A stretch of DNA of 64,000 nucleotides. It comes from an uncultured delta proteobacterium. Its GTDB lineage: Bacteria > Desulfobacterota > RBG-13-43-22. Under the pieces are notes generated by a model. The model searched no databases and was not told the DNA's origin. It saw only the letters and a list, made by a program, of their open reading frames with translations. A program made the position numbers and the translations under genes. Location of the stretch: positions 1 through 64,000 of the forward strand of contig CAWJJC010000027.1 of NCBI GenBank assembly GCA_963843145.1. Direction: 5' to 3'. Below are positions 13,886-33,705 of the stretch, in pieces; position 1 is the first letter of the stretch, and every line of letters starts with the position of its first letter.

Positions 13886-13915
13886 AATCGCTCAGGACAG
13901 CCGATCTTCCTAGTC

Positions 13916-14506: not shown

Positions 14507-14701
14507 AAAGGCCAGTAAAGGGGCTGAATTCGGGCTTATATGGCCCTTTTTTTTGGGGGGGGGCAAAAGCTGGGTTTGGGCATTCCAACGGCAAGAGGAG
14601 CCAACCGCCATTACCTGCCGGGCCAGATTTGGCACATCACCCATCATTAAGCAAGAGTATTTTTGGTTCGCCTATCAACGGGAATATGATAGAATTTCTT
14701 T

Positions 14702-15393: not shown

Positions 15394-16032
15394 ATATCGT
15401 TTTATTGAACGCATCTCCCCGGAAAAAAAGGTTCAAGAGTCCGAGTAAAGGGGACCTTCTTGAATTAGTTGACTTCTGGGACAAAGACTTTTTTGGCACG
15501 GATTTCACGGATGGGCACGGTTAAAACCATTCATTTCTCAAGAAATCGGGCACTCGATTTCCTGAGACCGGCTGCCGCCGGGGGCGCGTAAAGGGGGACA
15601 TCCTATATTCTTCCTGTCAAGAGGAAATATTTCATTTTGAGAAAGATAACGATTTTGATGGCATAGGAATTGGGCCATTTTTTGACCGCACCTCCCCTGT
15701 AGGGCTGACGGATGGGTGAGAGGGAAGAAGGAAGCGATTAGCTACACTTGGGTCGAAAGAGGGAAGATGAAGCGATTAGCTGCACTTGGGTCAGATGGAA
15801 GATGGAAGAGTGAAGATGGAAGAAAAAACCGAATACCCACCATTCAACCACGTCTTGTCCTTTTAAGTTTATTTTTGCCATGAAAAAGGGGTCAGAACTT
15901 TAAAATTGACAAAAGTGAAAAGGGGGAGACCGAGCAGAAAATCATTTATGGGCGAGACAATTGATTGAGGGATCCCGCGAAGTGGAAAGTACTGTTGAAT
16001 TTTCCCGATGTTAAGTACCCGAAGGAAGGCCC

Positions 16033-16302
16033 TTAGAAGTCATTTAAATCATGTGCAGGAGGGAGAGATACTTTTCGACAGATAGCCCGATGACCTTGAT
16101 TTTCATCAAACCCGGCTTCCTGTAATAAACCCTCCAAGGTCCCAATCTTTTGTGCCTCTTCTAGATTGATTTGGATCACTTCTCCCAAATTTTTTTTGGC
16201 CTGCTCCATCGTTTCTCCACAGGAGGCTATATCGAGTTCCGGGCAATAGGAGACATACATGTTCCCCTCTCTCCATAATTCTTCCGTTAGCTTGAGTTTC
16301 AT
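16033..16302 (-). CDS. HicB-like antitoxin, no cognate toxin
   Basis: EGNMYVSYCPELDIASCGETMEQAKKNL. Confidence 0.75.
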   Translation of the reverse strand: MKLKLTEELWREGNMYVSYCPELDIASCGETMEQAKKNLGEVIQINLEEAQKIGTLEGLLQEAGFDENQGHRAICRKVSLPPAHDLNDF

Positions 16303-16654
16303 ATGTCCTCCTGTTTCTTAAAAAATTGAGCTAATTCTACCATATTACGCAGAAAAGGGGAAGAAAAGGGTTAATGTGCCCCTCCGGGGTCAGGTCATTA
16401 AAATTAACAAAACCGAAAAGGACAAAGGGTTCGAGGAAAGATAGCTCATCATATTGGGACCGGGTCGGGCCCAATGCCCTTAACTTATCGGTAAATCCCC
16501 TCCACCCTCAGCCTATAATACGTAGTTTCTGAGTGAACTTAGCCGATTTCCACTCAAGGACCAAAGAGGTAAAACCCCTCCGGCCGCGGCCACCCCCTCC
16601 GCCAAATTCAATTAGACAGGATAAACAGGGTGGATGGAAATCAGGAAACCAGCG

Positions 16655-16790
16655 TTAAGCGCGATGGGACTTTTTAAATTTCTTAAGCTCCTCAACTTCA
16701 AAGGTATAAGCCCGCCCCAATTTATAGGCAAGCACCCGTCCCTGCTTAACCCATCTTCTTAGCGTAACGGCGGATATTCCTAAATGATCA
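16655..16790 (-). pseudogene. Excisionase-like HTH fragment
   Basis: LGISAVTLRRWVKQGRVLAYKLGRAYTF. Confidence 0.55.
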
Positions 16791-16988
16791 TAATTTGTCA
16801 AAAGACCTTTCAGGTCAGCGAACAGGCGAACCAGGCCAGGGCCTGTCAATTCCCACTCATGGATTAAACCGGGAATATCTTTCCACGCGTATTTACCTTC
16901 CCGCTATACCCCAGGCCAAGTCCCTTTACCGATTTCCACTCAAAGACAAAATCGGTAAATTACCACTCCCTCCGATATTAGTAATGGA

Positions 16989-17079
16989 GGCCGTTGGTGC
17001 AGAAAGTTCTTGAGGATAAAGACGAGCTGTGCGAGAAGTGAACTATGCCGCGATTAGCCCGGTTAGAGGCTCCGGTGTT
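16989..17079 (+). pseudogene. 5' end of a second RAYT family (MPRLARLEAP), cut by IS3
   Basis: Same leader and start at 19012-19067 and 20302-20438. Confidence 0.8.
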
Positions 17080-18358
17080 TGGCGATGGACCCCAGTACTT
17101 GGACAGCCTGAGCATGGGTCTAAGCTCTAAGTCTTGTTTTAGTAAAGGCCTCAGGCGGCCTGAATCACTGGAGCAGTTAAGCCCATATATACCTCATCCG
17201 GGGTTAGGATATCAAACGTTTGGTGGGGGCGTTCCTGGTTGTAGAACTGGAACCACCACTCCAGTCCGGCACGCAGGGCGGCGCCGTTGTCAAAACTGTG
17301 CAAATACAGGTACTGATACTTGGTGCTCCACCAGAGCCGTTCGATAAAGATGTTGTCCTGACGCGGCCACGGCCATCCATGCTGATGCGGATCTGGTGTT
17401 GTTTTAATAAGTCGGTAAAGGCCTGGCTGGTAAATTGGGCGCCCTGATCGGTGTTGAAGATCTCGGGAGTCCCATAGAGGCGAATCGCCTCTTCGAGCGC
17501 CTCCAGACAGAAATCGGTGTCCAGGGTATTGGAAAGCTTCAAGGAAAGCACTTTACGACTATACCAGTCCATGACCGCCACCAGGTACATAAAACCCCGG
17601 GCCATGGGGATGTAGGTGATATCCGAAGTCCAGACCTGGTTGGGACGGTCAATGGTCAGGTTTCGAGCAGATAGGGGTAGATTTGATGGTCCGGATGAGG
17701 CCGGCTGGTCTTCGGCTTGGGATAAATAGCTTCAAGGCCCATCAGGCGCATAAGCCGCTGGATACGTTTCCGGTTAACGTGATAGCCTAGCCTGTGCAAA
17801 TGGAGCCTCATGGAGCGGGATCCGTAGAAAGGCGTCTTCAGATATTGCTCGTCGATCCAGCGCATCAGGTCAAGATCCTGAGGAGCCGTATGGCCAGCGG
17901 TTTATAATACACCGTCGATCGGTTGAGGTTTAATAACCGGCACTGACGGGAAGCGCTCATCCTGGGGATCTTGACAGTCGATCATCTGCTTGCGCTGTTG
18001 TCGGCTTAGAGACTGAGCTTTTTGGACAAAAAATCGTTTTCCACCTTTAGCTGTCCGATCTGGCGATAGAGTTCATCCACCTGAGCTTCATGTTCCTTCT
18101 TGGTTTTCTGGCCTTTATCGAACAACTCGGTCGCCCCTTCGATCAGCGCTCGCTTCCAGTTGTTGATCATGGTGGGGTGAACTCCGAATCTGGCGGCAAG
18201 TTCGGAGACGCTCTCCTCGTTTTTCAGGGCCGCTAACGCTACTTTTGCTTTGAATTCCGGAGGGTGTTGTTGCCGTTTCGTTTCTTAATCATGGTTAGCT
18301 CCTTTCTTGGGGCTGACTCAGAGCTTAGCACATTGTCCAGTTTTTGGGGACCACCTCA
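17080..18358 (-). mobile_element. IS3-family element; orfA and orfB frameshifted
   Basis: TIRs TGAGGTGGTCCCCAAAAACTGGACA / TGGCGATGGACCCCAGTACTTGGACA; EFKAKVALAAL, PFYGSR, MDWYSRKVLS, FNTDQGAQFTS. Confidence 0.88.
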
Positions 18359-18718
18359 CTGCACCGCTTGGGAAAAGTGTTTTATGATCCGCTGAATATG
18401 CTGGGGTGAAATATCTGATTGGTCAAGTTTTGAGTAAATTGTTACCAGGATAAGATGGTGAGATGTCTTCTGCCAGTAGATTAACCGGTATCCCGAACTC
18501 TTCCCTTTCTTAATATCACTGTTCCTGGCTCTGGACTTAAAAAGGGTATAGGCAGAACCTTTTACTTGATTTCCGATTAACGCACCTGTTTGAAGCTGGT
18601 TGATAAGGGGTTGGATATCTGACCGGATATGGCGGTACTTTTTAACCAGCGCACGCAAATTCCTTTTGAATTCGGAAGTGTAATCAATATAGATAACCGA
18701 GTTAGAGTTACCCGTCAT
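18356..18718 (-). CDS. RelE/HigB-like toxin (stop codon supplied by IS3 end)
   Basis: EFKRNLRAL...RNSDIKKGKSSGYRLIY...VTIYSKLDQSDIS. Confidence 0.85.
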   Translation of the reverse strand: MTGNSNSVIYIDYTSEFKRNLRALVKKYRHIRSDIQPLINQLQTGALIGNQVKGSAYTLFKSRARNSDIKKGKSSGYRLIYWQKTSHHLILVTIYSKLDQSDISPQHIQRIIKHFSQAVQ

Positions 18719-18926
18719 CAATCCCATCCCATAAATTTGATACTGGATGAGTTTCCCCCATTAGACTTTCTTTCCATCCCTGGCGGAAACTTTCTTCGGC
18801 CGAATTCAGGGTGACGCTTTGCCGGAAAAGACGAACGATTTGAATCAGATTAGGCAAATATTCCTCGGGAATGTTTTTAATTTCAAAAGCCAGCTTTTTT
18901 TTAAAAAGCGGCAATTGGCCTTCCAT
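18708..18926 (-). CDS. Putative antitoxin
   Basis: IPEEYLPNLIQIVRLFRQS...FRQGWKE...LWDGID; GGAGG RBS; overlaps toxin. Confidence 0.75.
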   Translation of the reverse strand: MEGQLPLFKKKLAFEIKNIPEEYLPNLIQIVRLFRQSVTLNSAEESFRQGWKESLMGETHPVSNLWDGIDDG

Positions 18927-19440
18927 AATTAATCCTCCCAATCTTTATATTTTATACTTTTGTTATTTTACATCTATTTTTTGAAATTTGAACCAAAAAA
19001 GTAAAGTAGGTGAGTGAACTATGCCGCGATTAGCCCGGTTAGAGGCTCCCGGTGTTCTGCACCAGGTTTAGACGGGGGTCGGACCCAATGCCGTTAACTT
19101 AACAGAAAGAGCCTGTTTTTGCTATCTTTAATGGTTTCGGGAGCCAGGGGCCAGGGCTGGGGAACGGGGTATTTACGAGGACGTCCCCGACGACGTTTTT
19201 CCAAACCCCGACTTTTTCGGCGATATTCCTGTCGATCCCGAGTGAACTGACGGCCCGGTTTTATAGACACGCGGTGCCGGGCACAGGATTTTATGAAGAC
19301 TTCCCAGAGAGGTCCGAGTAGCTTTTCCGAAGAGGAAAAGGGCCTTAAACTAACCTTTTTCCGCCTCAAAAGAGGCTTTTAAGGATGGGCGTCTTATCGA
19401 CTCACCTCCTCTATCCGTAGACGGGGGTCGGATCAGGAGA

Positions 19441-19740
19441 TCAGGGTGTTAAATCAGCGAGAAGAAGCCGGAATTGGTCATAAACGTCCCGCCGGTGGCC
19501 GACATAATAGACATGAATCACCTCATGGTCGTCATCAACGGAGTAGATGATCCGGAATCTCCTGGGTATGAAGGATTTGAATTCGGCGAGCTCGTCCTGT
19601 AGATCATCTCCGGCATAGGGCTCCTGCCGAAGTTCGTCCAGGGCCTCTCTTATGATCCTCTTGTTATCGGGATGTAGCCGGGAGATACATCCCGCCGCCT
19701 CCGGCGTGAAACGGAGCCGGCGAGAATACCCGTGGCTCAT
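19441..19740 (-). CDS. RelE/ParE-family toxin, no adjacent antitoxin
   Basis: RRFRIIYSVD...YVGHRRDVYDQF. Confidence 0.8.
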   Translation of the reverse strand: MSHGYSRRLRFTPEAAGCISRLHPDNKRIIREALDELRQEPYAGDDLQDELAEFKSFIPRRFRIIYSVDDDHEVIHVYYVGHRRDVYDQFRLLLADLTP

Positions 19741-20014
19741 AGCCACATCGAGATTCGAGAATCTGTGTTCGATGTTTGACGTTCGTTTATTCTCAAGGGA
19801 AACCCAATTTCGAATTGATCCGCCACGACCTGACCCAGTCCGTTTTCCTCGAGGTGGATGAGATCTACAACTTGGCCTGCCCGGCCTCCCCAATCCATTA
19901 TCAAGTGAGGTGGCTCGCTACCTGGGGGTGACCACTTCCTGCACCAATCGGGTGGTGGGAAGGGGGCGAAAAGATGGGAATAATGAAAGGATGGAAGATT
20001 GGGGTAGGGTGGGT

Positions 20015-20610: not shown

Positions 20611-20686
<76 letters not shown>

Positions 20687-21585: not shown

Positions 21586-21690
21586 GGTAAATGCTGTGTG
21601 CGATCAATTCACCCAGTCGGGACCCCGCTTATGGCCCGCCGCCTCGCCCCATAATTCCTTGAGTCCTTGGTCACGACCGCATCTATAAAG

Positions 21691-21853
21691 GATCTCATAA
21701 TTGTCTGTACATACCACCGACCGTCATCCCCGAGTGTTTTTGTCGGGGATCGAGAATCGTAGCAGATAGAGGCTGGATTCCCGCCCAGAAGCGCTGCGGG
21801 AATGACGATGAGAGAACCTCAAGATAGTCGGTTTTGTTATGAGACCGTTAATA
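21691..21853. repeat. MITE ends enclosing a REP-like double hairpin
   Basis: TCTCATAA...TTATGAGACCGTTAATA with cgtcatccccga...cgggaatgacg. Confidence 0.65.
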
Positions 21854-22025
21854 ATAGTGTTGGTGGTAATCCTCTGCCGGGTAGAAGGCTGAGGCCGGAA
21901 CAATCTCGGTTACAAATAGGTCACTTAAAAGGAGAGATCGATCTGGTTATTCCCCGGTTATTTTCTTTCCCTTAATTCGAGTTGGCGGACCTCGATAGCT
22001 TTTTTGCCGGCAATGAAAAAAAAGC

Positions 22026-22054
22026 TTGACACTACCCCAATAGGTCTTGATAAT
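22026..22054 (+). promoter_or_regulatory. Sigma-70 promoter of the cytochrome operon
   Basis: TTGACA-17-GATAAT. Confidence 0.7.
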
Positions 22055-22122
22055 TCAACGACTATTTGAAAAATTTATTTGGCCGTGCACCCTTTTCGGG
22101 AGGTTGTCCGTGAAAGAAATTT

Positions 22123-22165
22123 AGAAAACCTCAAATCTCGGAGGAGATCTGGGGTTTTCTATTTT
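22123..22165 (+). terminator. Terminator-like hairpin within the 5' leader
   Basis: AGAAAACCTCAAATCTC-GGAG-GAGATCTGGGGTTTTCT followed by ATTTT. Confidence 0.6.
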
Positions 22166-22288
22166 GGGAAATCCGGGGACCTTCTGAAAAGAAGGGAAGA
22201 GAGTTCTTCAACTAAGGGCGGAAGTCGGGGATAAATCCAGGAACATCAAGACGGTCAAGGTCCGGGCCTTGACCGAAAGGGGGAGGCG

Positions 22289-23647
22289 ATGAAGAGAATA
22301 TTTCTGGGAAGTTTCTTTTTGACGGTTTTCTTGGTTTCAATTTTTCCTAAGGATGCGGCGGCCATTCCGGCTTTTGCCCGGAAATACAAAACGGCCTGTA
22401 TGACTTGCCATACTGTCTGGCCGAAACTGTCGGCCGTGGGAGAGGCCTTCCGGATGCTCGGTTACAGGCTGCCCGAGAACGATGAACTCTATGTCAAGGA
22501 TCAGCCGGTCAGTCTGGGGGCGGAGCCCTACAAAAAGCTGTTTCCCAATTCCATCTGGCCCTCCGACATACCCGGGATGCCGCCTCTTTCGATCCGGTCC
22601 ACCGGAGGCGTCAATGTCAACACCGGTGACGCCAATGGAAGCTCATCGAATACCCAGTTTAACTTCCCTGGAGAGGTAGACCTGCTGGGGGCCGGCACCT
22701 TTGGGAAGGACTTCTCTTTCTTTATGAACCTGGCTTTTATTTTCGATTCCGGATCTAACACCACGGAGGGGCAGGCCTGGTTGATGTGGTCGGACCTTTT
22801 CAGTGGAGTTCTCGGCAAACACCACCTGAACATTAAAGCCGGGAATGTGGGCCGGCAATCGATCGCCTTACCCAATTCCCGGGATGAAAATAATTTTACC
22901 ATCAACAGCTACCAGTACCAGGATGTGCTTGCTCTGCAGCCTCAACCCGGTTTCCAGGTCAATGGATTCGGGAGTCGTTGGCGCTACTATGCCGGCCTGG
23001 TGCAGGCCAACACGGACAGCAGTTCTTTGGATTATTACGGTGGTCTGTCTTTCAAAATCGGCGGGTTGGGTTTTGATGGTACCGGGTTGAAATCCGAAGA
23101 GGGCGGGCTGACCACCTCGCCGTCCGGGTTTTGGCGGGACGACTCCATCCTTTTCGGTCTCTTCGGCTATCAGGGGTACACCGGCACGAATGCCGACAGG
23201 GCTACTCGATTTGGAGCGGATGCCCGGGTGAACTACAAAGACCTTTCCCTGGGCGGAGGATATATCAGGCAAAACGCGGATGAGCCTGTTACCCCTCCGA
23301 CGGATACAAGCACGGGCGCAAAAATATTCCCCAATTCAGGGCTACGGAGAATTTCGCTTCTCGACGAACCCTCTACGACGAGTACAACAAAGAATCTCTG
23401 GTTTGTTGAGGGAAACTATTTTATATTTCCCTGGTTGATCCCGTATGCCCGATACGAGGCGCTGACCGTAGACGCCAACGATCAAGATCAAGCCCGAATT
23501 ATTGGCGGTATAGCCTTTTTATTGCGCGCCAATATCAAACTCAACCTGGAATACTTGTACTACACGACAAACCAGCCCAGAGAGGCGGCCGGCCAAAAGC
23601 TTCATGCTGATGATATGATGTCCTTTCAGCTTGATTTTTCTTTTTAG
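22289..23647 (+). CDS. cyc2: Cyc2-like monoheme cytochrome c / outer-membrane beta-barrel fusion
   Basis: Signal peptide, IPAFARKYKTACMTCHTVWPKL..GEAFRMLGY (PxFAR-CxxCH-PxL), amphipathic strands, terminal Phe. Confidence 0.72.
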   Translation: MKRIFLGSFFLTVFLVSIFPKDAAAIPAFARKYKTACMTCHTVWPKLSAVGEAFRMLGYRLPENDELYVKDQPVSLGAEPYKKLFPNSIWPSDIPGMPPLSIRSTGGVNVNTGDANGSSSNTQFNFPGEVDLLGAGTFGKDFSFFMNLAFIFDSGSNTTEGQAWLMWSDLFSGVLGKHHLNIKAGNVGRQSIALPNSRDENNFTINSYQYQDVLALQPQPGFQVNGFGSRWRYYAGLVQANTDSSSLDYYGGLSFKIGGLGFDGTGLKSEEGGLTTSPSGFWRDDSILFGLFGYQGYTGTNADRATRFGADARVNYKDLSLGGGYIRQNADEPVTPPTDTSTGAKIFPNSGLRRISLLDEPSTTSTTKNLWFVEGNYFIFPWLIPYARYEALTVDANDQDQARIIGGIAFLLRANIKLNLEYLYYTTNQPREAAGQKLHADDMMSFQLDFSF

Positions 23648-23683
23648 CGTCCGAGCAGCCTTCTGCTGAAAGAAAGGAATTCC

Positions 23684-24337
23684 ATGGCTAACCCGTTTAA
23701 AAACAGAAGCCTACGTTTATTGGCCGCCGGGATCTTCGCCCTGGCGGTTTGCTTACCGGCCCTGCCGATCCGGGCCCAAGAGACTAAAGGCCATCAATCG
23801 GGAGGGTTCATTAAAGGGGTGGTCAACACCCCTTGGGTGAAACGGTACCCGGCCCTGGTCTACGTGGATCACGTCAAGGGTGAATTTCCCCCTCCCAAAA
23901 AGGAGGCCTTCATGGGTCAGAAGGGCATGGTCTTCACCCCCCATCTTTTGCCCATTCTCAAAGGAACCACGGTCGACTTTACCAATGACGATACCGTGGC
24001 CCACAATGTCTTTGCCCCTCCCGGCTCCGCCACCACTTTTAATCTGGGTCTCTACGGCACGGGCGTCAAAAAGACCGTCAAGTTTGATAATCCGGGTGAG
24101 GTCCCCCTCCTCTGCAATGTCCATCCGGAAATGCTCGGTTATATCATCGTCTTACAAAACCCCTACTTCACCCTTACCGACAATTCCGGGAAATACGAGA
24201 TCAAAAATGTCCCCCCGGGGACCTATAAACTCAAGGTCTGGCATGAGAAGCTCCAAGAGACCTCCAAGGAGGTGGTCGTGGGGGAAGGGAAGACCGTTAC
24301 CGTTGATTTTGAAAAGGATAAATTGAAACAGAGATAG
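23684..24337 (+). CDS. Periplasmic cupredoxin plus carboxypeptidase-regulatory-like domain
   Basis: HNVF...CNVHPEM type-1 Cu ligand set; VPPGTYKLKVWH. Confidence 0.8.
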   Translation: MANPFKNRSLRLLAAGIFALAVCLPALPIRAQETKGHQSGGFIKGVVNTPWVKRYPALVYVDHVKGEFPPPKKEAFMGQKGMVFTPHLLPILKGTTVDFTNDDTVAHNVFAPPGSATTFNLGLYGTGVKKTVKFDNPGEVPLLCNVHPEMLGYIIVLQNPYFTLTDNSGKYEIKNVPPGTYKLKVWHEKLQETSKEVVVGEGKTVTVDFEKDKLKQR

Positions 24338-24350
24338 GGCCAGGGCTTTC

Positions 24351-25154
24351 ATGAGCTTAAGGATGACTAGCGGGAGGAAGGCCAGGCAACTGGTCATTCG
24401 CCTGGGGCTGGTATTAATGATGAGCGGATTGCCGCTGTCTTCCTCCTCGGCCGAGTCGATCAAACTAAAGGAGTATGTGATCCCAGGTAGCACGCTGGAG
24501 GGGAAAACCGAAACGGGGGGAAAGGTTCAGGTCCCCCTGAAAACGATCCAACCCGCCGAGAAAAGCGAGCAGGGAAACCCTCCGGCCGGAAAAAGGGAGG
24601 CACAGCTTTTAGAGAGAATCGATGAACTTCAAAAAAGGATCGAACGGCTTGAAAGAATAATAGAAGGAAGCCGGAAGGTCGATGTTTCACCAACTCCGGG
24701 TCCCGGCCTGGAGAGAAGGCCAGGGGAAGGTCCCGCGCCTTCAAAGACTACGGCCCTTCACGAACAGCTCTTGCTGGAGGAAATGGGCCGGGTGCAAGGA
24801 ATTATTCAATGGCAGGGGAAGCCCCTGGCTAACGGAAAGGTGAGGATCGAGCTCGAGAATTATACGGGTGTCTCACTGGCTTCCGTCAAGAAAATGCTCT
24901 CGGAAGAAGTGAAAGAATCCACCGTCTCCGACCAGGGGATTTTTCTGGCCACGCAAACCGATTCGAAAGGACGGTATGCCTTTGAAAAAGTCCCCCCCGG
25001 GAGTTACCGTTTTTATTGGTGGCCGGACTTTAAAACCGGTTGGGTTCATCGGCTTCGAGAGAAACCCGACTTTGAAGTCCTTTCGGGTAAGCTGACGATC
25101 CAGGACATTCCGGAGAAGCCGACGGTGGTAAAAATCCCCCTGAGGAAACCCTAA
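24351..25154 (+). CDS. Exported protein with coiled coil and carboxypeptidase-regulatory-like domain
   Basis: RIDELQKRIERLE; TDSKGRYAFEKVPPGSYRF. Confidence 0.7.
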   Translation: MSLRMTSGRKARQLVIRLGLVLMMSGLPLSSSSAESIKLKEYVIPGSTLEGKTETGGKVQVPLKTIQPAEKSEQGNPPAGKREAQLLERIDELQKRIERLERIIEGSRKVDVSPTPGPGLERRPGEGPAPSKTTALHEQLLLEEMGRVQGIIQWQGKPLANGKVRIELENYTGVSLASVKKMLSEEVKESTVSDQGIFLATQTDSKGRYAFEKVPPGSYRFYWWPDFKTGWVHRLREKPDFEVLSGKLTIQDIPEKPTVVKIPLRKP

Positions 25155-25157
25155 CGG

Positions 25158-25280
25158 ATGAATGCCCACGAAGAGTACAGTTTTTTCAAAGAAATGCTGA
25201 TTGTCGTCCTCGTAGGGGGGACCCTGGGGGTGTTCTTGCTGGTCCTGGCCGAAATCTTGGTGGCCTTGATCAAGCGATAG
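25158..25280 (+). CDS. 40-aa single-TM protein
   Basis: MNAHEEYSFFKEMLIVVLVGGTLGVFLLVLAEILVALIKR; below ORF-track cutoff. Confidence 0.55.
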   Translation: MNAHEEYSFFKEMLIVVLVGGTLGVFLLVLAEILVALIKR

Positions 25281-25323
25281 CCCCGTTCTCTCGGACCAAC
25301 CTGCGGGGTTTGGAGAATAAGTC

Positions 25324-25782
25324 ATGACCGAAAAGAAGTATACCAGACGGGAAATCTTAAATCAAATCGGCTGGGTGGCGACCTTGGGGAGCTTTGCCGG
25401 CCTCACGGCCGCCTCCGTCCGCTATGTGATTCCCAATGTTCTCTACGAGCCTCCCCTGAACTTCAAGATCAGCAGGCCCGAGGACTATCCGGAGGGCGTG
25501 GACTATATCGATGAGAAAAGGATCTTTGTCCTTCGCCAGGGAAATCTCATTAAGGTCGTCTCGGCCGTTTGCACCCATTTAGGCTGTTCCGTCCAATGGG
25601 CCCCGGAGCGCAATCGCTTTGAGTGTCCCTGTCACGGCAGCCTGTTCAATGCCCGGGGGCAGGTTACCAAAGGACCGGCTCAAAACCCCCTTCCCTGGTA
25701 CGAAGTCACCTTAACCGCGGACGGCAGGCTCCTGGTAGATGAAAGCCGGACGGTTCCTTTTCAACGCACCCTCTCGGTCTAA
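25324..25782 (+). CDS. Rieske [2Fe-2S] subunit
   Basis: Tat motif TRREIL, CTHLGC, CPCHGS. Confidence 0.95.
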   Translation: MTEKKYTRREILNQIGWVATLGSFAGLTAASVRYVIPNVLYEPPLNFKISRPEDYPEGVDYIDEKRIFVLRQGNLIKVVSAVCTHLGCSVQWAPERNRFECPCHGSLFNARGQVTKGPAQNPLPWYEVTLTADGRLLVDESRTVPFQRTLSV

Positions 25783-25821
25783 GGATCAGGCCGTGAATCC
25801 TTTCCAAGGAGAATCCATCCC

Positions 25822-26961
25822 ATGAGAATCGATGCCAGGGATCTCCTCTTCCAGAATCGTTTTTGGAAATCCATCGTCCGAAAAGAGATTCCGGTCAATC
25901 AATGGCTGAGGACCAGGATCCTTGGTCTGGGCCTGATCAACTTTTATCTCTTTATCATCCTGACGATTACCGGGATCCTGTTGATGTTCTATTACACCCC
26001 GGACACGGAAAGGGCCTACCAGGGAATCAAAGATCTGGAATATGTAGCCAGCTTCGGCCTGATCTTCCGCAACATGCATCGTTTTGCCGCTTACCTGATG
26101 CTTATCTCGATCTTTTTGCACATGAGTCGGGTTTTTTATACGGCTGAATATCGGGAACCCAGGGAATTCAATTGGGTGACCGGCCTGCTCCTTTTCCTCT
26201 GTACGGCGGTCATGGCCATAACCGGTTATATCCTGCCTTGGGACCAAAAAGGCTACTGGGCCATGACCATTACCTCCAATGTGGTCACCTCGGCGCCGGT
26301 TATCGGGGAAAAGCTCAAGTATCTGATCCTGGGTGGAAACGAGGTCGGTCAAAACGCCCTGGTCCATGCCTACGGCATGCACGTTAAAATCATCCCCCTG
26401 GTTATCGGATTGGTCATGGGGGTCCATTTCTGGCGGATTCGTAAGGACGATTTTTTGGCCTGGGCCGTCTGGGGCGGACATTTGGATATCAAAGAAGGGG
26501 AGACGGCTCCAACAGCCCAGGGACCGGAGCAGGGATCTTCCCTGTGGCAGGATATCATCGTCCGGGAGCTCAGCAAATTTCTCTTGATCCTGGCCCTGGT
26601 TATGGCGATCTCGCTCCTGTTCAACGCCCCTTTGGAAGAAGGGGCCAACCCCTCGGTAACACCCAGTCCGGTCAAGGCCCCTTGGTTTCTGGTGGGTATG
26701 CAAGAACTCCTGTCCTGGGGAGCCCCCTTCTTTTTCGGTGTCCTGGTTCCCAACGTCATGATTATTCTGATCATCCTGATCCCCTATCTGGATCGGGGCC
26801 GTGAAGGAATCGGGGTCTGGTTTCACCCCAGCCGCCGAAAGGCCAATATCATTTTCACCGCGGTCGTCACGGTGTACTTGGGTCTGATTGTCATCGGGCA
26901 GTTTTTGCGGGGTCCGGGCTGGGTCCTTTACTGGCCCTGGCAGTCCTGGCCCACGCATTGA
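25822..26961 (+). CDS. Cytochrome b (b6 and subunit IV fused)
   Basis: RNMHRF...LHMSRVF, TGYILPWDQKGYWA, MHVKII...VHFWRIRK, KAPWF in place of PEWY. Confidence 0.92.
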   Translation: MRIDARDLLFQNRFWKSIVRKEIPVNQWLRTRILGLGLINFYLFIILTITGILLMFYYTPDTERAYQGIKDLEYVASFGLIFRNMHRFAAYLMLISIFLHMSRVFYTAEYREPREFNWVTGLLLFLCTAVMAITGYILPWDQKGYWAMTITSNVVTSAPVIGEKLKYLILGGNEVGQNALVHAYGMHVKIIPLVIGLVMGVHFWRIRKDDFLAWAVWGGHLDIKEGETAPTAQGPEQGSSLWQDIIVRELSKFLLILALVMAISLLFNAPLEEGANPSVTPSPVKAPWFLVGMQELLSWGAPFFFGVLVPNVMIILIILIPYLDRGREGIGVWFHPSRRKANIIFTAVVTVYLGLIVIGQFLRGPGWVLYWPWQSWPTH

Positions 26962-26985
26962 CTATTTTAGGCCTTTAAAAAGGCG

Positions 26986-28953
26986 GTGGAAATGAAAGAT
27001 ATATTTCAAAGGATCTTTCCCTTTTTGGCTTTATTGGTCTTGCTCCTTTTTATCGGACAGGTTTGGAAAAATTACAATCCCTCTTATCTAACCTATCAGA
27101 AACAATTTAAGTCCCTCCTCCTCCAAAAGGTCACCCAGAAAGGTAAAGGCCCTAACTTTCAATTTGGGGTTCGGCAGCGATGGATTGAAAAACTAAAAAG
27201 GACGGATCGCTGTGAGACTTGTCATCTCGCGATGGAAGACCCGCGGTTTCAAAATGCCCTTCAGCCTTTCCGCTCCCATCCCGACCTGGGTGGGCACGAT
27301 TTCGAAAAAATCGGCTGCACCGTCTGCCACGGGGGACAAGGATTGGCCACCCCTTTGAAGGATGCGCACGGTCCGGTGGAGAATTGGAATCAGGCCATCT
27401 ACCATCAGGACTTTATGGAAAATTCCTGCGGTCTTTGTCACGGCGAGACCCTTCGGGACCAGGCACCGGTTTTGGCCCAAGGACGGACCATCTTTAAGGA
27501 TTACGGCTGCCGGGGCTGCCACCTGGTCAAGGGAAAAGAAAGGACCCTCGTCGGGCCGCCGTTGGATCGGATCAGCCAGTGGGTCAAATCCGATTGGCTC
27601 TATCGCTGGGTCCTGAACCCTAAAGGCTATCTTCCCAAGACCGCCATGCCCAATCCGAAATTCTCTTCCCAGCAGGCAGCGGACGTGGCCGCCTTTCTCT
27701 TCCAAGGCGAACCCCCCCCGGAGGGCAAAGTGGGCGGTTCCACCGAAGAAGGCAAAAAATTATTCAAGGACTCTCGTTGTGTCAGTTGCCATTCCGTTGA
27801 AGGGAGAGGGGGGACCCTGGCCCCTGAACTCAGCAAGATCTCCTCCAAGATGGTTCCGGAACGAATGAGCCGGATTATCAAAAATCCTCATGAGCTCTGG
27901 GCCGCCTCCCGGATGCCGATCTATGGTTTTTCCGATCAGGAAATCCTCAAAATCGTCAACTTTTTAGCGGGAGAATATATCGACCTGAATCTGGATGAGC
28001 GTCAGGTCGCCGCCCAGGCCCGAATGGTTCAGGGGGGCAATAAGCTCCAGGGAAAAGAATTAATAGAAAAACAGGGGTGTACCGCCTGCCATACCAAGAT
28101 CGCAGGTGTAAAGGATCGCGGCGAGATCGGCGTGGAACTGACTACCATCGGGGGGATCCATATCAGCCATCTGGAGTTTGGCCGTGTCCAGGTCACTCCT
28201 CATGATCGCACCGTTCCCAACTGGCTTTACAACAAGATGAAAAACCCCAGGCTCTTCAAAGCAGAGCTAAAGATGCCCGATTACGCCTTCAGCGACCGGG
28301 AAGCCGAAGCCGTAACCACCTATTTATTGGGAATGAAAGGCCAGGAAGTCCCCGCCGCCTATACCCTCCCTTTGGGAGAGAAGCCCTCGACCTACGCTCC
28401 GCAAGGCAAATTTGGCCAGGTACTGGACAAGTACCGCTGTTTTACCTGTCACCAAATCTACGGAAAAGGCGGGGATATGGCCACCGACCTCTCCCAGGAG
28501 GGGAGCCGGGTCAAGAAGACCTGGTTGCAGAAATTCATGAAGGCTCCCGACACCATTCGGCCCATCCTGGTGGAACGCATGCCGCTTTTTAAAATCCAGG
28601 ATTCAGAAATCGAAACGCTTTATGCCTATTTTGGGACTACCCTGGTGGATGACCGGGTTGAGAATTTAACCGGCCGGGCCACTGAGACGGCCAGCCATAA
28701 TACCGCCCTGATCCAGACCGGTAAAGACCTGTACAATAAAAAATACGCCTGCCAGACCTGTCATCAAATCAATCAACAGGGTGGCCTGATCGGACCGGTG
28801 CTGACCAAGGTCGGGGACCGGCTGAGGCTCGAATGGATCCTTTATTATCTACGGGATCCCAAGGCCTTTGTCAAACGCTCGGTTGAGCCGGTCTATAAAT
28901 TGACCGATAAGGAAATCGAGGCCCTGGCGGCCTTTCTGGCCTCTCCCAAATAA
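26986..28953 (+). CDS. Membrane-anchored octaheme cytochrome c
   Basis: 8 CxxCH: CETCH, CTVCH, CGLCH, CRGCH, CVSCH, CTACH, CFTCH, CQTCH. Confidence 0.92.
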   Translation: MEMKDIFQRIFPFLALLVLLLFIGQVWKNYNPSYLTYQKQFKSLLLQKVTQKGKGPNFQFGVRQRWIEKLKRTDRCETCHLAMEDPRFQNALQPFRSHPDLGGHDFEKIGCTVCHGGQGLATPLKDAHGPVENWNQAIYHQDFMENSCGLCHGETLRDQAPVLAQGRTIFKDYGCRGCHLVKGKERTLVGPPLDRISQWVKSDWLYRWVLNPKGYLPKTAMPNPKFSSQQAADVAAFLFQGEPPPEGKVGGSTEEGKKLFKDSRCVSCHSVEGRGGTLAPELSKISSKMVPERMSRIIKNPHELWAASRMPIYGFSDQEILKIVNFLAGEYIDLNLDERQVAAQARMVQGGNKLQGKELIEKQGCTACHTKIAGVKDRGEIGVELTTIGGIHISHLEFGRVQVTPHDRTVPNWLYNKMKNPRLFKAELKMPDYAFSDREAEAVTTYLLGMKGQEVPAAYTLPLGEKPSTYAPQGKFGQVLDKYRCFTCHQIYGKGGDMATDLSQEGSRVKKTWLQKFMKAPDTIRPILVERMPLFKIQDSEIETLYAYFGTTLVDDRVENLTGRATETASHNTALIQTGKDLYNKKYACQTCHQINQQGGLIGPVLTKVGDRLRLEWILYYLRDPKAFVKRSVEPVYKLTDKEIEALAAFLASPK

Positions 28954-28993
28954 CGGCGCTAGGGATCATAGCCGGAGATAAACGCCTGAAGGA

Positions 28994-29461
28994 ATGAAGA
29001 TGGCAAAAAAAATTTTCCTTGTACTTTTGATCAGCGCCTCGATCTTTTTTATTCTGAATTCGCCGGGAGAAAGCCAAAAACCCCCTTCCCCCATTCCTCA
29101 GAACCAGGGGGGGAAACCAATATTCTTGCTTCCCCAAAAACACGGCCAACTCACCTTTGACGAAAAAAAAGGTCGGGCCTTGTTTGACTATTACTGTGTC
29201 CTTTGCCACGGGGCCACCGGGAACGGGGATGGGTTCAATTCTTATACCCTGACCACCCCGCCGGCTAAATTGGCCGACCCGAACCTGATGGCTAAACTAT
29301 CCGATGCCCAGATCACGGAGGTTGTCAAAAAAGGGGGAGCGGCCCTCGGGCTATCCAATCAAATGCCTTCCTGGGGCGGTCTTTTGAAAAATAAGGATAT
29401 TGCCTCCCTGGTCGCCTACATTCGAACCCTTTCTAAATCGGTTGGCGGGAAAGGGAAGTAA
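28994..29461 (+). CDS. Monoheme class I cytochrome c
   Basis: CVLCHGATGNGDG...MPSWG. Confidence 0.9.
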   Translation: MKMAKKIFLVLLISASIFFILNSPGESQKPPSPIPQNQGGKPIFLLPQKHGQLTFDEKKGRALFDYYCVLCHGATGNGDGFNSYTLTTPPAKLADPNLMAKLSDAQITEVVKKGGAALGLSNQMPSWGGLLKNKDIASLVAYIRTLSKSVGGKGK

Positions 29462-29498
29462 AAAAGCAGGCCACAGATAACAATCAACGATCAAACAG

Positions 29499-29537
29499 AA
29501 AGCCCCGGAGGGCATCGAGCCCTAACGGGGTTTTTTT
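29499..29537 (+). terminator. Intrinsic terminator
   Basis: AAAGCCCCG...CGGGGTTTTTTT. Confidence 0.7.
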
Positions 29538-29903
29538 CTTCAACGGCCATTAAGTGCAATCCCCTAGGTTCATGGCCGCCAGGGCCGCTTCGGACGCTAG
29601 GAACCGCCCACCGGGGGGTAGGCCCTTTTTTTGACAAACTCCTTAATTTTTATCAACAATCGACAGCGAGTCGAGGGGAGATTGTAGCCAATTTTCTTCA
29701 AAAGATCCTCTTTGTCCACTTGCCTTTAGCCTTCTTTTCCCTTATACTCTTTCCAGGCTCGGGGAGGACACCCTGATGTCTGAGAATATAGGGAAGGATC
29801 TAAATCTAACTGGTTGACATTAATAATTGAATGCCTATTGACTTAGCTCATAATGATATGGCTTTAGACGGCTATGCTATAATGAATCGTCCGAGTGCAA
29901 AGT

Positions 29904-29989
29904 CGTCATTCCGGACGACCGCAGGGAGATCCGGAATCCAGATCCCAGAGCTTTCAATGCCCTGGATCCCGGATCGAGTCCGGGATGAC
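29904..29989. repeat. REP-like double hairpin (related copy 37797-37884)
   Basis: cgtcattccggac...gatccggaatccag...ctggatcccggatcgagtccgggatgac. Confidence 0.75.
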
Positions 29990-30014
29990 AACTAAAACAA
30001 AATAGGAGGTAGCT

Positions 30015-32294
30015 GTGAAAGAGGCTTTGAATATTGTCGGCCAAAGGGTGGTGCGAAGTGACTCTCTCGCCAAAGTTACCGGCGCGGCGCGTTATACCGC
30101 CGACTTGAAGCTGCCCAATATGCTGGTGGCCAAGGTGCTGCGGAGCCCTTATCCCCATGCCAAGATAGTCCGCATCGACACCCAGCGAGCGCTGAAAGTG
30201 CCGGGTGTGAAGGCGGCCGTGAGCGGTTTTGATGCCTATGGGATCAAATGGGGTGTCTTCCGCTATACGCAGGACCACGCCATGCTACCCACGGACAAGG
30301 TCCGCTATATCGGGGAGGACGTGGCGGCCGTCGCGGCCGTTGACGAAGAAACAGCCCTGGAAGCCCTTTCCTTCATCAAGGTAGACTATGAGCCTCTTCC
30401 CGCCGTTTTTGACCCCATCGAGTCGATGAAGGAGGGTGCGCCCCAGATCCACAACGAATACAAGAACAACATTAACATTCACGTTCATATCGATGTGGGT
30501 GAGGTGGACAAGGCCCTGGAAAGGGCCTTCCTCGTCCGTGAGGATACCTTCAGCGCCGCCGGCGAGGCCTACGCGATGATGGAGCCCTATGCGGTCGTCG
30601 CTTCCTACAAGAACGGTTTCCTCGACCTCTGGATGCCCAACGCCGGACCCCACGTCCGCGCCAAAGCGCTGTCCAACCTCCTCAAGATGCCCCTTAACCG
30701 GGTGCGTGTCCGTCATATCAATTCCGGAGGCGCATTTGGCGGGCGATCCGAGGTGGCGCCCGGTGACCTGGTAGCCTCGCTTTTGTCCATCCAGGCCGGC
30801 AGGCCGGTCAAGCTGGTCCTTTCCCGCGAGGAGAACGCCACGAGCTCAAGACAGATCCACGACATTATCGCCACGGTAAAAACGGGCATGAAAAAGGATG
30901 GCACTATCGTAGCGAAGGACTACCGCGCGGTATATAACGGGGGCGCCTACAGCTCAACGGGCCCTATCGCCACCTCGATCCCCTTTTATGTCTACGAGGA
31001 ATGTTATCGTTTTCCCAACGTCCGATATAATGGGTACCGGGTATTCACGAACAAAGGCATTCGGGGGATGTACGGTTGTCACGGAAGAGCCTTTCTGGCC
31101 GGGAACGAGGCCCAGATGGATTTTATGGCCAAAGAGCTCGGCCTGGATCCCGTGGATATACGCCTCAAGAACGGCCTGACGGCCGGGGAAGTAACGGCGA
31201 CGAAATCTAAGATAACCAGTTGCGGTCTCCAAGAAACCATTAAGGCCTCGGCCGAAAAAACGGACTTCAAAAAAAGATGGGCCGCCAGGTCGAAGCTCAA
31301 AGGGATCGGGATGGGATGCGTGGCCATCATGTGCGGTTTCCCCATGGGCTTCCGTTCCGGCTCGTCGTGCTACGTCAAGATCAATGATGACGGTCAGGTA
31401 GCACTCGTTACCGGCCTCGTGGACAACGGACAGGGGAACGAATCCATGGTCATCCAGGTGGCCTCGGAGGTTCTCGGCGTCCCCATGGAGGACATCAACC
31501 TCGTGAATGCGGATACGGAGGTCACCAACCTCGATCCGGGCGCCTATTCACAGGCAGCCGCCTTCGTGGGAGCCAACGCGGTGAAGGCGGCCTGTGAAAA
31601 GGCACGCCAGCGGATCGTCGCCATTGCCGCGGAAAAGCTCGGCGTGAAAGAGGCGGAGATCAACTTGAAAAACCGGATGGCGTATTCCGTGACCAAACCC
31701 GACAAAAAGATGCCTATTTCCTGGGTGGTGCGGGAGGCCTTCTCCAGGGGAGATCCGATCGTAGCGACCGGTTCTTACTTCCCCCACATCGATTTCGAGA
31801 GGGAATGGGTCTCGAGACCCTGGGGCCAGATGGCCGGGACCTTCTCCTTTGGAACCTCCGTGGCGGAAGTAGCTATTGACCCCGAGACGGGAAAAGTCAC
31901 CATCCCCCATTTCACGGCGGCCCACGATTGCGGGCGTCCCCTAAACCCCATGGCGGTGGAAGGGCAGATGGAGGGGTCTATCCAGCAGGCCGGGGTGGCG
32001 ACCATCACCGAAGAGAACCTTTGGAACGGCGGTTTCCTCCTCAACCCGGATCTTCTGGAATACAAAGTTCCCCTGGCCTGTGACATGCCGGAGATAGAGA
32101 CGATCATTATAAGTTCCCAGGACCCTGAAGGGCCTTTCGGGGCGAAAGAGGGGGGTCTGACCATCCGGATGAACGCCTACAGCGCCGTCGCCTGCGCCGT
32201 GGCCAATGCCACCGGCGCGCTTTTCACAGAGTTGCCGCTCACACCGGACAGGGTGTTGAACCTCTTGGAGCGGGAGAAGGGGGTGAAGGGATGA
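30015..32294 (+). CDS. Xanthine-dehydrogenase-family molybdopterin subunit (HcrA-like, atypical active site)
   Basis: KVTGAARYTADL, LRSPYPHAKI, GGAFGGR, HDCGRPLNP, GPFGAKE. Confidence 0.92.
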   Translation: MKEALNIVGQRVVRSDSLAKVTGAARYTADLKLPNMLVAKVLRSPYPHAKIVRIDTQRALKVPGVKAAVSGFDAYGIKWGVFRYTQDHAMLPTDKVRYIGEDVAAVAAVDEETALEALSFIKVDYEPLPAVFDPIESMKEGAPQIHNEYKNNINIHVHIDVGEVDKALERAFLVREDTFSAAGEAYAMMEPYAVVASYKNGFLDLWMPNAGPHVRAKALSNLLKMPLNRVRVRHINSGGAFGGRSEVAPGDLVASLLSIQAGRPVKLVLSREENATSSRQIHDIIATVKTGMKKDGTIVAKDYRAVYNGGAYSSTGPIATSIPFYVYEECYRFPNVRYNGYRVFTNKGIRGMYGCHGRAFLAGNEAQMDFMAKELGLDPVDIRLKNGLTAGEVTATKSKITSCGLQETIKASAEKTDFKKRWAARSKLKGIGMGCVAIMCGFPMGFRSGSSCYVKINDDGQVALVTGLVDNGQGNESMVIQVASEVLGVPMEDINLVNADTEVTNLDPGAYSQAAAFVGANAVKAACEKARQRIVAIAAEKLGVKEAEINLKNRMAYSVTKPDKKMPISWVVREAFSRGDPIVATGSYFPHIDFEREWVSRPWGQMAGTFSFGTSVAEVAIDPETGKVTIPHFTAAHDCGRPLNPMAVEGQMEGSIQQAGVATITEENLWNGGFLLNPDLLEYKVPLACDMPEIETIIISSQDPEGPFGAKEGGLTIRMNAYSAVACAVANATGALFTELPLTPDRVLNLLEREKGVKG

Positions 32295-33238
32295 TCCTAC
32301 CTAAGTTTGCCTACCAAAGAGCGCAAAACATTGCCGAGGCCATCGACCGCTATGCCCATTTTGACGGGCAGGCTCGTTATCTCGCCGGGGGCACGGATCT
32401 TATCCCACTGTTGAAGCTGCGCTTGTCCACGCCGGTGGCCCTCATTGACCTGAAGCCGATCCACGAATTAAAAACCTTTTCCCGACAGGGCGGGTGGCTG
32501 GTTATAGGTTCGAACGTTACGCTCTTCGAACTGAAGAATGACGCCCGGATAAAAGAAAAATTTCCCGCCCTTTACGAATCCCTCGAGGCCACTTCCTGCG
32601 AAACGCTCCAGATGCGAGGCACCATCGGCGGGAATATCCTCCAGGATACGCGCTGCCTCCTCTATAATAAATCCCTCGAATGGCGTCGCGCGAGAGGCTT
32701 TTGTTGGAAAATGGGCGGCCCGGCGTGTAACGTCGTTCCCCAGGCGCAGACCTGCTTTTCGAATTACTGCAGTGACAACGCGCCCGCACTCCTTACCCTG
32801 TCGGCCCAGGTAAAATTGGTCGGCCCCGGGGGTGAACGGACGGTAAAGTTGGAAAAACTCTTCAGCGGCGATGGTAGGAAGCCCTTGGCGCTGGGGCCGG
32901 GAGAGATCCTGACGCAAATACGGTTACCCTGGGAGAATACGAAAGGAACCTACGAGAAATTGCGGGTCCGGGATTCCGTGGATTATCCCTTGGTGGGGGT
33001 GGCTGTTTCGATGAAAGGTTCTTCCGCCAGGGTCTGTGTCGGAGGTGTCGGTCTGGCACCCCGGGTTTATACGCTCAAAACCCTTGATGAACGCAGTGTC
33101 AAAGATACGGCCGCCCAGGCGGCGGCAGACGCGAAGCCGGTATTGAACGCCACGCTCTCCCCGGTCTACCGGAAGAAAATGGTCGGTGTCCTCTTTAAAC
33201 GGGCGATCAAGAAAGTCCAGCGGGGGGGTGCGCGATGA
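32291..33238 (+). CDS. FAD subunit with [4Fe-4S] insertion (HcrB-like)
   Basis: AGGTDL, TIGGNI, RC..YN...WR...FC......C......C insert. Confidence 0.88.
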   Translation: MILPKFAYQRAQNIAEAIDRYAHFDGQARYLAGGTDLIPLLKLRLSTPVALIDLKPIHELKTFSRQGGWLVIGSNVTLFELKNDARIKEKFPALYESLEATSCETLQMRGTIGGNILQDTRCLLYNKSLEWRRARGFCWKMGGPACNVVPQAQTCFSNYCSDNAPALLTLSAQVKLVGPGGERTVKLEKLFSGDGRKPLALGPGEILTQIRLPWENTKGTYEKLRVRDSVDYPLVGVAVSMKGSSARVCVGGVGLAPRVYTLKTLDERSVKDTAAQAAADAKPVLNATLSPVYRKKMVGVLFKRAIKKVQRGGAR

Positions 33239-33705
33239 AGACGATGAAGGTCACCTTTCAGATAAACGACGAACAGGTCACACTCCAAGTGCGGCCTTAT
33301 GAGACGCTCTTGGAAACTCTACGGGAGAGGCTTTCGCTCACCGGGGCCAAAGAGGCCTGCGGATTGGGTGCTTGCGGGGCCTGCACGGTGGTGGTGAACG
33401 GTACACCGCTGAGGTCCTGCCTGGTCCTGGCCCCCGAAGTGGATGGCGCGGTTATTACGACGGTTGAAGGGCTGCGTCAGGAAGGAAAACTCCATCCGCT
33501 CCAGGAGGCCTTCATGGAGAAAGGTGCCGTTCAGTGCGGTTTTTGCACCTCCGGTATGATCATGACGGCCAAGGCGCTCCTGGATAGAAACGAAAAACCG
33601 ACCAAGAAAGAGATTATCAAAACCATTTCTTCTAATCTCTGCCGCTGCACCGGATACAAGAAAATCATCGAGGCGGTGGAGGCGGCGGGAAAGAAGGCCC
33701 GGTAG
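33235..33705 (+). CDS. 2x[2Fe-2S] subunit (HcrC/CoxS-like)
   Basis: CGLGACGACTV, QCGFCTSG, NLCRCTGY. Confidence 0.95.
   Translation: MKTMKVTFQINDEQVTLQVRPYETLLETLRERLSLTGAKEACGLGACGACTVVVNGTPLRSCLVLAPEVDGAVITTVEGLRQEGKLHPLQEAFMEKGAVQCGFCTSGMIMTAKALLDRNEKPTKKEIIKTISSNLCRCTGYKKIIEAVEAAGKKAR

Follow-up and report, generated by a model that had tools for sequence, protein, structure and literature searches.

Whether a porin-cytochrome of the Cyc2 family that is encoded together with a quinone-reactive membrane complex carries electrons into the cell or out of it is the question raised by an operon of an uncultured delta proteobacterium (Desulfobacterota; RBG-13-43-22; assembly GCA_963843145.1). 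We analyzed a window of 64,000 nucleotides (contig CAWJJC010000027.1, positions 1 to 64,000), in which seven co-oriented open reading frames (ORFs) occupied positions 22289–29461 of the + strand, with intergenic gaps of 36, 13, 169, 39, 24, and 40 bp and with 1, 0, 0, 0, 0, 8, and 1 CxxCH motifs in genes 1 to 7, respectively. Gene content, motifs, folds, homology, and conservation placed a Cyc2-family protein and a predicted type-1 copper protein upstream of a Rieske/cytochrome b/octaheme complex homologous to Kustd1480-85 of anammox bacteria. We tentatively favor the explanation that the operon would encode an envelope-spanning module for electron uptake from soluble Fe(II), and we give this somewhat less than an even chance. 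A sequence-only reading of the stretch had recognized the seven genes, all of which were present, and had left the direction of electron transfer undecided, a caution that our analysis upheld; it had missed an eighth gene, for a 40-aa membrane peptide. The features of the operon were as follows.

22026..22054, + strand: candidate sigma70-like promoter (TTGACA-17-GATAAT, 11/12, consensus match alone), ~230 nt upstream of gene 1
22289..23647, + strand: gene 1, predicted Cyc2-family fused monoheme cytochrome-porin, 452 aa, with CMTCH at 37–41 and a predicted 16-strand OprP-like barrel
23684..24337, + strand: gene 2, predicted exported type-1 copper protein, 217 aa (H107, C144, H147, M150), with a CarboxypepD_reg-like beta-sandwich
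24351..25154, + strand: gene 3, exported protein, 267 aa, with no Cys/heme motif and a weak CarboxypepD_reg-like domain
25158..25280, + strand: 40-aa single-transmembrane peptide, candidate small subunit, an ORF inside the 169-bp gap
25324..25782, + strand: gene 4, Rieske [2Fe-2S] protein, 152 aa, with a twin-arginine-like N-terminus and CPCHGSLF
25822..26961, + strand: gene 5, cytochrome b of 379 aa, a fusion of the b6 part with subunit IV (H86/H100/H187/H202; APWF)
26986..28953, + strand: gene 6, membrane-anchored octaheme cytochrome c, 655 aa, Kustd1485 homologue, with eight CxxCH motifs
28994..29461, + strand: gene 7, class I monoheme cytochrome c, 155 aa, with an N-terminal hydrophobic segment and Met124
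29517..29533, + strand: candidate terminator-like hairpin and T run after the last gene (consensus match alone)

Members of the Cyc2 family are recognized by AXPXFAR[Q/K][T/Y], one CXXCH, PXL, a minimum length of 365 aa, and a barrel of 16 strands like that of OprO/P (Keffer et al., PMC8406198). Residues 25–47 of gene 1 matched the regular expression A-x-P-x-F-A-R-K-Y-x3-CxxCH-x3-P-x-L, the CxxCH was the only one in the protein, the C-terminal residue was F, and a signal peptide was read from hydropathy. An AlphaFold2 model made with 116 sequences (predicted template modeling score 0.80; mean predicted local distance difference test score (pLDDT) 76.7, low in the heme region) contained 16 strands starting at residue 100. 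The best VIA structure match of this model was OprP (Z 25.4, root-mean-square deviation 2.9, 302 residues aligned) and its Foldseek matches were general porins; there was no Pfam, NCBIfam, or PDB sequence match to gene 1. The heme motif was retained in all 86 Cyc2-family ORFs clustered. The Cyc2 signature, beta-barrel, and terminal F of the sequence-only reading were confirmed, and motif and model together indicate that gene 1 is a Cyc2-family protein.

Gene 1 was 66% identical to MBI4767809.1 (P0010), which is encoded at the start of the corresponding operon in locus L093, from a genome of the same family. MBI4767809 has been listed among the closest homologues of a Cyc2 from 'Ca. Mariimomonas ferrooxydans', a cluster-3 protein that sped up Fe(II) oxidation in E. 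coli, and JAZFSN01 sp036446195 has been assigned to the Mariimomonas genus, a cluster-3 genus (PMC13647500). Locus L007 came from contig JAZFSN010000107; its Cyc2 was 48% identical to gene 1 and was followed downstream by a cupredoxin, a gene-3 homologue, a flavoprotein, a Rieske protein, and cytochrome b before the contig stopped. In a 45-row tree gene 1 and the proteins of L093 and L007 fell into one 16-row clade with support 100/100 (99 in a 99-row quick tree); the Cyc2 trees were made without a named reference Cyc2, and a plasmid search for such a reference gave 9 short, mostly N-terminal matches. Gene 1 may thus be placed with cluster 3 indirectly only, by its clade with MBI4767809 and the JAZFSN01 locus and not by a hidden Markov model assignment. 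The earlier remark that many Cyc2 homologues have no proven function does not hold for every member of this subclade, one of which oxidized Fe(II) heterologously (PMC13647500).

The model of gene 2 (pLDDT 90.5) matched the folds of amicyanin, plastocyanin, and pseudoazurin, and rusticyanin was not among the fold matches listed. C144, H147, and M150 of the copper site were invariant in 83/83 homologues, and H107 was present in 75/83. By these ligands and this fold, gene 2 is predicted to be a type-1 copper protein that binds copper through His/Cys/His/Met; the amicyanin-like spacing described earlier was found, in an amicyanin/plastocyanin fold with an extra beta-sandwich. Gene 3 belonged to a family found in 31 of the 85 loci clustered, gave leads below 0.9 alone in the Atlas, and may have an accessory role. 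A peptide similar to the 40-aa peptide occurred in 14 of 29 intervals inspected, all belonging to the near clade, and among six relatives the differences at codon positions 1/2/3 numbered 50/17/72.

The Rieske protein had 9rk4 and 9rk3 as its best PDB sequence matches. Its boxes were CTHLGC at 83 and CPCH at 101, and its motif carried the Ser and Phe pair of Kustd1480, with Ser at the tuning position in 33/33 rows. In cytochrome b the Qo motif APWF lay at 286–289, and the heme ligands H86/H100/H187/H202 were conserved in 96–98% of 48 rows. The motifs therefore bore out the Rieske protein, cytochrome b, and 8-heme and 1-heme cytochromes c named before. In the Kuenenia locus L099, the gene for the 9rk3 sequence precedes those for cytochrome b6, an NAD(P) oxidoreductase, subunit IV (with APWY), and an octaheme protein of 948 aa, in this order. 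Identity to these Kustd1480-85 proteins was 37% for the Rieske protein, 41% for the b6 part, and 33% for the subunit IV part, and the octaheme protein was 31.8% identical to Kustd1485 over 500 aa (E 1e-68), the first seven heme motifs being similarly spaced. From this homology the membrane complex is assigned to the anammox Kustd1480-85 type of the APWY clade, and not to the bc1 complex of Acidithiobacillus with which the sequence-only reading had compared it. At L099:6382, L102:13064, and L106:10913, where kustd1482 would be expected, the cytochrome b6 and NAD(P) oxidoreductase genes were separated by a different hydrophobic ORF of ~50 aa.

Kustd1480 has a Rieske potential of +335 mV, and Kustd1480-85 has been modeled as forward bifurcation to NAD(P)+ via a new heme on His62; according to the same source, a favorable partner reaction is yet to be proposed (PMC12954380). 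The APWY clade has been described as uncharacterized, and its reverse operation was suggested by Kao and Hunte (PMC4122944). The operon in the window had no NAD(P) flavoprotein, homologues of which (32–38% identity) were encoded elsewhere in the host genome. In the fused cytochrome b, 24 residues before helix A were deleted, including the equivalent of Kustd1481 His62, and Gly occupied the position of Kustd1481 Cys80. Across 47 cytochrome b rows, an alignment that leaves out the frameshifted L097, His62 was retained in 27/27 rows with a flavoprotein and in 10/20 rows without one. The 10 deletions formed one clade, sister to L007 and L008, and therefore represent one event, which fits the His62 proposal and is not independent proof of it. 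By comparison of these sequences, this lineage appears to have lost the flavoprotein together with the proposed linking heme site, and the NAD(P) branch cannot apply in this window because both the flavoprotein and the His62 segment are missing. In two Nitrospirota loci (L007:1-2177 and L008:18417-20790), an NfnA/NfnB-like gene pair adjoined the operon.

Among 33 octaheme rows, H98, H104, and H128 near hemes 1–3 were conserved and M221, M310, M430, and M532 after hemes 4–7 were invariant, a pattern that suggests three bis-His and four His/Met hemes. The residue after heme 8 was E in 22 rows, Q in 4, C in 4, and D, A, and M in 1 each; here it was Glu634. The rarity of Met at this one position would suit a complex that serves a periplasmic enzyme site at heme 8, catalytic or ligand-binding and for a small substrate, with Cyc2 acting as a side input or as a gated channel for solutes. 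Such a role, with which the resemblance of the barrel to the anion channel OprP and the existence of the complex without Cyc2 in Kuenenia would also agree, seems improbable to us, since the Kustd1485-type protein of L106 retains Met at this position, no catalytic family match explains the octaheme domain, and the heme motif persists throughout the clustered Cyc2-family ORFs.

Conservation was surveyed in the best 80 of 573 confirmed GTDB loci. A cupredoxin lay within 10 kb of Cyc2 in 70 of the 80, and a Rieske protein, cytochrome b, and multiheme cytochrome were encoded downstream in 28 of the 53 loci with at least 7 kb of downstream sequence. All five partners were present in 27 of these 28, which spanned 8 named phyla and 5 records without a phylum name, and 18 had an added NAD(P) flavoprotein (GltD/NfnB-like). 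Around more distant Cyc2-type genes, 18 hand-picked control loci gave cupredoxin, Rieske, and cytochrome b hits in 0/18. The co-occurrence of Cyc2, cupredoxin, and the Rieske block is thus more than chance, and the synteny survey, named beforehand as a check by the sequence-only reading, found the operon conserved. A Cyc2 match was present in 9 of the 21 genomes of the class to which the host belongs, full-length in 8 and as broken pieces only in G016; all 7 relatives in the class with a full-length gene had the operon downstream of it, one copy being truncated where its contig stops and another carrying a frameshift. The cultured strain Geothrix terrae SG184 (L067) also carried it. In the Brocadiales, the Cyc2 profile matched in 43/92 genomes and the octaheme protein in 77/92. 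The Kuenenia genome of L099 had no Cyc2 match, and two Brocadiales loci, L106 (G090, 2776-17417) and L108 (G105, 2598-19901), had Cyc2 and cupredoxin genes upstream of a Kustd1480-85-type cluster. L108 carried two such clusters in tandem.

Other partners of the Cyc2-cupredoxin pair were NapH/MauN-like, Mo-enzyme/NrfD, and diheme modules, or two-component genes alone. A second recurring module was seen at L016, L019-L021, L037, L043, L059, and L060, where Cyc2 and the cupredoxin lay near CoxB-like domains and a NapH/MauN-like polyferredoxin. Three Zixibacteria loci (L022, L025, and L035) encoded, in this order, a COX4-cytochrome c fusion, Cyc2, a protein with a weak Fe2+-transport-family match, the cupredoxin, and a hexaheme protein, without Rieske/cytochrome b. 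The Cyc2 proteins of Rieske-bearing loci did not form one clade: an approximately unbiased test rejected this grouping (p-AU 8e-5), and at least 5 changes were required (in this test, some loci labeled 'no complex' may have been truncated with their contigs, and L038 and L011 were labeled carriers on partial evidence); therefore, the inner module was swapped or lost repeatedly. Distance correlations between Cyc2 and its partners (rho 0.38–0.50, 33 rows) were not taken as proof of co-evolution, because shared ancestry explains them.

This distribution bears on whether the operon combines co-regulated genes of separate function, with metal uptake or detoxification (redox chemistry of Fe or Cu at the envelope) as the task of the Cyc2-cupredoxin pair and with mere co-expression of the Rieske complex. 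The pair was far more constant than the Rieske block (70/80 against 29/80 loci), and both the scattering of Rieske-bearing Cyc2 proteins over the tree and the protein with a weak match to an Fe2+-transport family between Cyc2 and cupredoxin in the Zixibacteria loci would fit such a division. However, the recurring replacements were mostly redox modules (NapH/MauN-like, Mo-enzyme/NrfD, and diheme cytochromes), although several loci had two-component genes only; the gene order was retained across the 8 named phyla, and the operon contained no metal transporter. We regard separate functions as no more probable than an enzyme site at heme 8.

The host genome (G000; 97.9% complete, 6.9% contamination) encoded dsrAB (dsrA above cut-off), acetyl-CoA synthase, [NiFe] hydrogenase, cytochrome c assembly genes, and two bd oxidases. 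A heme-copper oxidase subunit matched best as CcoN, below cut-off (275.6 against 583 bits), and this cbb3-like gene sat between ORFs that we take to be a diheme CcoO-like gene and genes like those of alternative complex III (ACIII). The 'apparent anaerobe' of the sequence-only reading was therefore not sustained, and its absence of a terminal oxidase applied to the operon and failed for the genome as a whole. Since a cbb3-like and two bd oxidases are encoded, a downhill O2 sink exists; in 4 of 5 other operon-bearing genomes a heme-copper family gene was above cut-off. For the host quinone pathway, no MqnA/D family match was found, and MenB and MenD were below cut-off. At G000 C20:168237-196999, the cbb3-like oxidase, ACIII-like, and complex I-like genes formed one co-oriented run, a gene content suggesting that this dsrAB-bearing sulfate reducer has a complete aerobic chain. 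On the same contig (C20:202047-204387) a qNOR-like gene was split into two frames, by assembly error or as a pseudogene, and C4:34061-39844 held a further Rieske/cytochrome b set, accompanied by cytochromes with 11 and 10 hemes.

In the uptake module that we favor, a small reductant in solution, most probably Fe(II), would enter the Cyc2 pore and reduce its single heme. The electron would then pass from Cyc2 to the type-1 copper protein and on to the monoheme cytochrome and the His/Met hemes of the octaheme protein. From this high-potential pool, electrons could run downhill to an oxidase encoded elsewhere (here cbb3-like) and uphill via the Rieske protein and the APWF cytochrome b to the quinone pool; in most relatives, the complex would be linked to an NAD(P) flavoprotein in the cytoplasm. 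We infer each protein-protein step, the direction of flow, and the identity of the host's substrate from the tested subclade member, the proposal of reverse operation in the APWY clade, and the host's separate ACIII. The cbb3-like oxidase with its own ACIII-like genes, together with acetyl-CoA synthase, would make the complex unnecessary as an ordinary aerobic complex III. The tested Cyc2 proteins named in PMC13647500 and PMC8406198 are all Fe(II) oxidases, and Fe(II)/Fe(III) lies near 0 ± 100 mV at neutral pH (PMC8406198), so that reverse flow appears feasible.

Several points weigh against uptake. The Mariimomonas assay was a single whole-cell reading, 5 min after 100 µM FeCl2, in lysogeny broth (PMC13647500); it indicates capability and says nothing on direction in vivo. 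Within the family, cluster 3 has been described as the one whose Cyc2 function and wiring are least certain (PMC8406198). Forward quinol oxidation is the only mechanistic model of the homologous anammox complex (PMC12954380), no APWY complex had been characterized (PMC4122944), and a Rieske center near +335 mV would be an awkward intermediate for reverse flow. Kuenenia, as noted, retains the complex without a Cyc2 match. A NapH/MauN-like protein, of a family that oxidizes quinol, occurs near the Cyc2-cupredoxin pair in 8 loci. NapA was not found in any of the 21 class genomes and NarG was below cut-off in G000, so there is no nitrate sink in the host, and by gene content O2 is the only high-potential sink found there for c-type cytochromes. 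A cbb3-like gene was present in 6/8 class genomes with the operon and in 7/13 without it, no significant association (Fisher p 0.40).

The main rival runs the same route outward: quinol oxidized at Qo would deliver its high-potential electron via the Rieske protein, octaheme, monoheme, cupredoxin, and Cyc2 to a soluble acceptor of high potential that enters the pore, such as chelated Fe(III) or Mn(III). In relatives with the flavoprotein, the second electron would reduce NAD(P)+ by bifurcation, and the route would supply the high-potential partner missing for Kustd1480-85. The hosts include Geothrix and other Holophagaceae, in which Fe(III) reduction occurs. Outward flow would accord with the NapH/MauN-like genes, the invariant Ser at the Rieske tuning position, and the placement of Cyc2 and cupredoxin upstream of Kustd1480-85-type clusters in L106 and L108, as well as with the published model, a forward bifurcation for which the accessible text names no favorable partner (PMC12954380), and with the Geobacter ext cluster, which has been implicated in reduction (PMC5877670). 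Yet no tested Cyc2 works as a reductase in the accessible text of PMC13647500, PMC8406198, or the Acidithiobacillus literature; a single heme on the periplasmic side of a narrow pore would reach small solutes only (PMC8406198); and the NAD(P) branch is inapplicable to the reduced complex of this window. We consider outward flow possible but doubtful.

The sigma70-like promoter was retained in the same-genus locus L095, and not clearly in 6 more distant family loci. Terminator-like hairpins occurred at 18 sites against 13.0 expected, and the hairpin at 29517..29533 is therefore weak by itself. An Rfam search of 21600-30100 gave no match, and a conserved riboswitch in the leader was rejected, as a hairpin near 22133-22157 was retained in the same-genus locus alone. 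An opposite-strand ORF of 390 aa (25786-26958) was read as a shadow of cytochrome b. Upstream, positions 1-20686 were rich by eye in transposase-like and toxin-antitoxin-like ORFs and ended at tRNA-Arg(TCT) (20611-20686); this region is probably an integrated island, with the operon on the opposite side of the tRNA gene. Directly after the operon, 30015-33705 held a xanthine-dehydrogenase-family molybdoenzyme operon with its own promoter-like sites, a neighbor that recurred in G003 alone among the relatives seen.

Compared with known systems, gene 1 shares with the Mariimomonas cluster-3 Cyc2 (PMC13647500) and the Cyc2 family (PMC8406198) a signal peptide, one CxxCH, AxPxFAR[QK][TY] and PxL, and a 16-strand OprP-like barrel. 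The Mariimomonas host has nitrate reductases, whereas none was found in this host, in which a cbb3-like oxidase is present. The main text of PMC13647500 has no mention of Rieske, cupredoxin, or bc1, and the operon is therefore not described in that text. Kuenenia Kustd1480-85 (R/b-2 in PMC9325076; PMC12954380) has homologous Rieske, b6, subunit IV, and octaheme proteins, the Ser and Phe pair, and APW[YF]. Unlike it, the operon here has no NAD(P) oxidoreductase, a fused cytochrome b that has lost the His62 segment and the Cys80 position, an octaheme protein of 655 aa (948 aa in Kuenenia) in which heme 8 is not followed by Met, and added Cyc2, cupredoxin, and monoheme genes. The Acidithiobacillus Cyc2-rusticyanin-CycA-bc1 chain follows the same logic of monoheme porin, blue copper protein, cytochrome c, and Rieske/cytochrome b. 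It is, however, encoded in two operons (rus and petI), with a cluster-2 Cyc2, a PPWY bc1 complex, and an aa3 oxidase encoded in rus; here there is one operon, with a b6-type APWF complex with octaheme, an amicyanin-like copper site, and no oxidase.

The Geobacter extHIJKLMNOPQS genes likewise form one cluster with an OprP-annotated porin, multihemes, a Rieske protein, and cytochrome b (PMC5877670). The ExtP, ExtQ, and ExtS models matched our cytochrome b and octaheme protein, only ExtS above cut-off (ExtP 221.9 below 290 bits; ExtQ 67.8 below 150 bits). In contrast, the Geobacter cluster has a porin (ExtI) with separate cytochromes, a rhodanese (ExtH), 5-, 10-, and 12-heme proteins, and no cupredoxin, and it has been tied to selenite/tellurite reduction (PMC5877670). 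Neither a rhodanese nor a 10/12-heme gene was found in this operon, which does not belong to the Geobacter ext type. A link between Cyc2 and a Kustd1480-85-type complex was not found in the literature searched, in which few subscription papers were included and figures or supplements could hold it; this covered the accessible text of PMC10654088, PMC13741234, PMC9325076, PMC10732223, PMC7188810, 10.1101/855817, PMC7029218, PMC9386147, PMC9040806, and PMC5566968. The earlier description of an undescribed module thus stands for this linkage within that literature and fails for the combination of a porin with Rieske/cytochrome b and multihemes, which is known from Geobacter (PMC5877670), every part being already known. 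The present analysis adds the connection to a tested Cyc2, the deletion around His62, the eighth gene, the lack of Met after heme 8, and a revised picture of host physiology.

In the literature searched, we found no report of dissolved-Fe(II) electron use by dsrAB/Wood-Ljungdahl bacteria. A widespread and self-contained chain that links the cell surface with quinone and NAD(P) may be the native wiring of this Cyc2 subclade and the unexplained high-potential partner of Kustd1480-85-type complexes, and its stripped form may let such a lineage draw Fe(II) electrons for O2 respiration and quinone reduction; as a whole, this proposal lies on the unlikely side. The operon joins two open questions, the wiring of cluster-3 Cyc2 (PMC8406198) and the partner reaction of Kustd1480-85 (PMC12954380), and offers a testable answer to both. 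The natural deletion bears on the predicted novel heme, as His62 was deleted only where the flavoprotein was gone, in one event. If uptake is true, the potential for iron oxidation would extend to sulfate reducers, Ignavibacteria, and Acidobacteriota; if outward flow is true, cyc2 would be unsafe as a marker of iron oxidation in these same groups.

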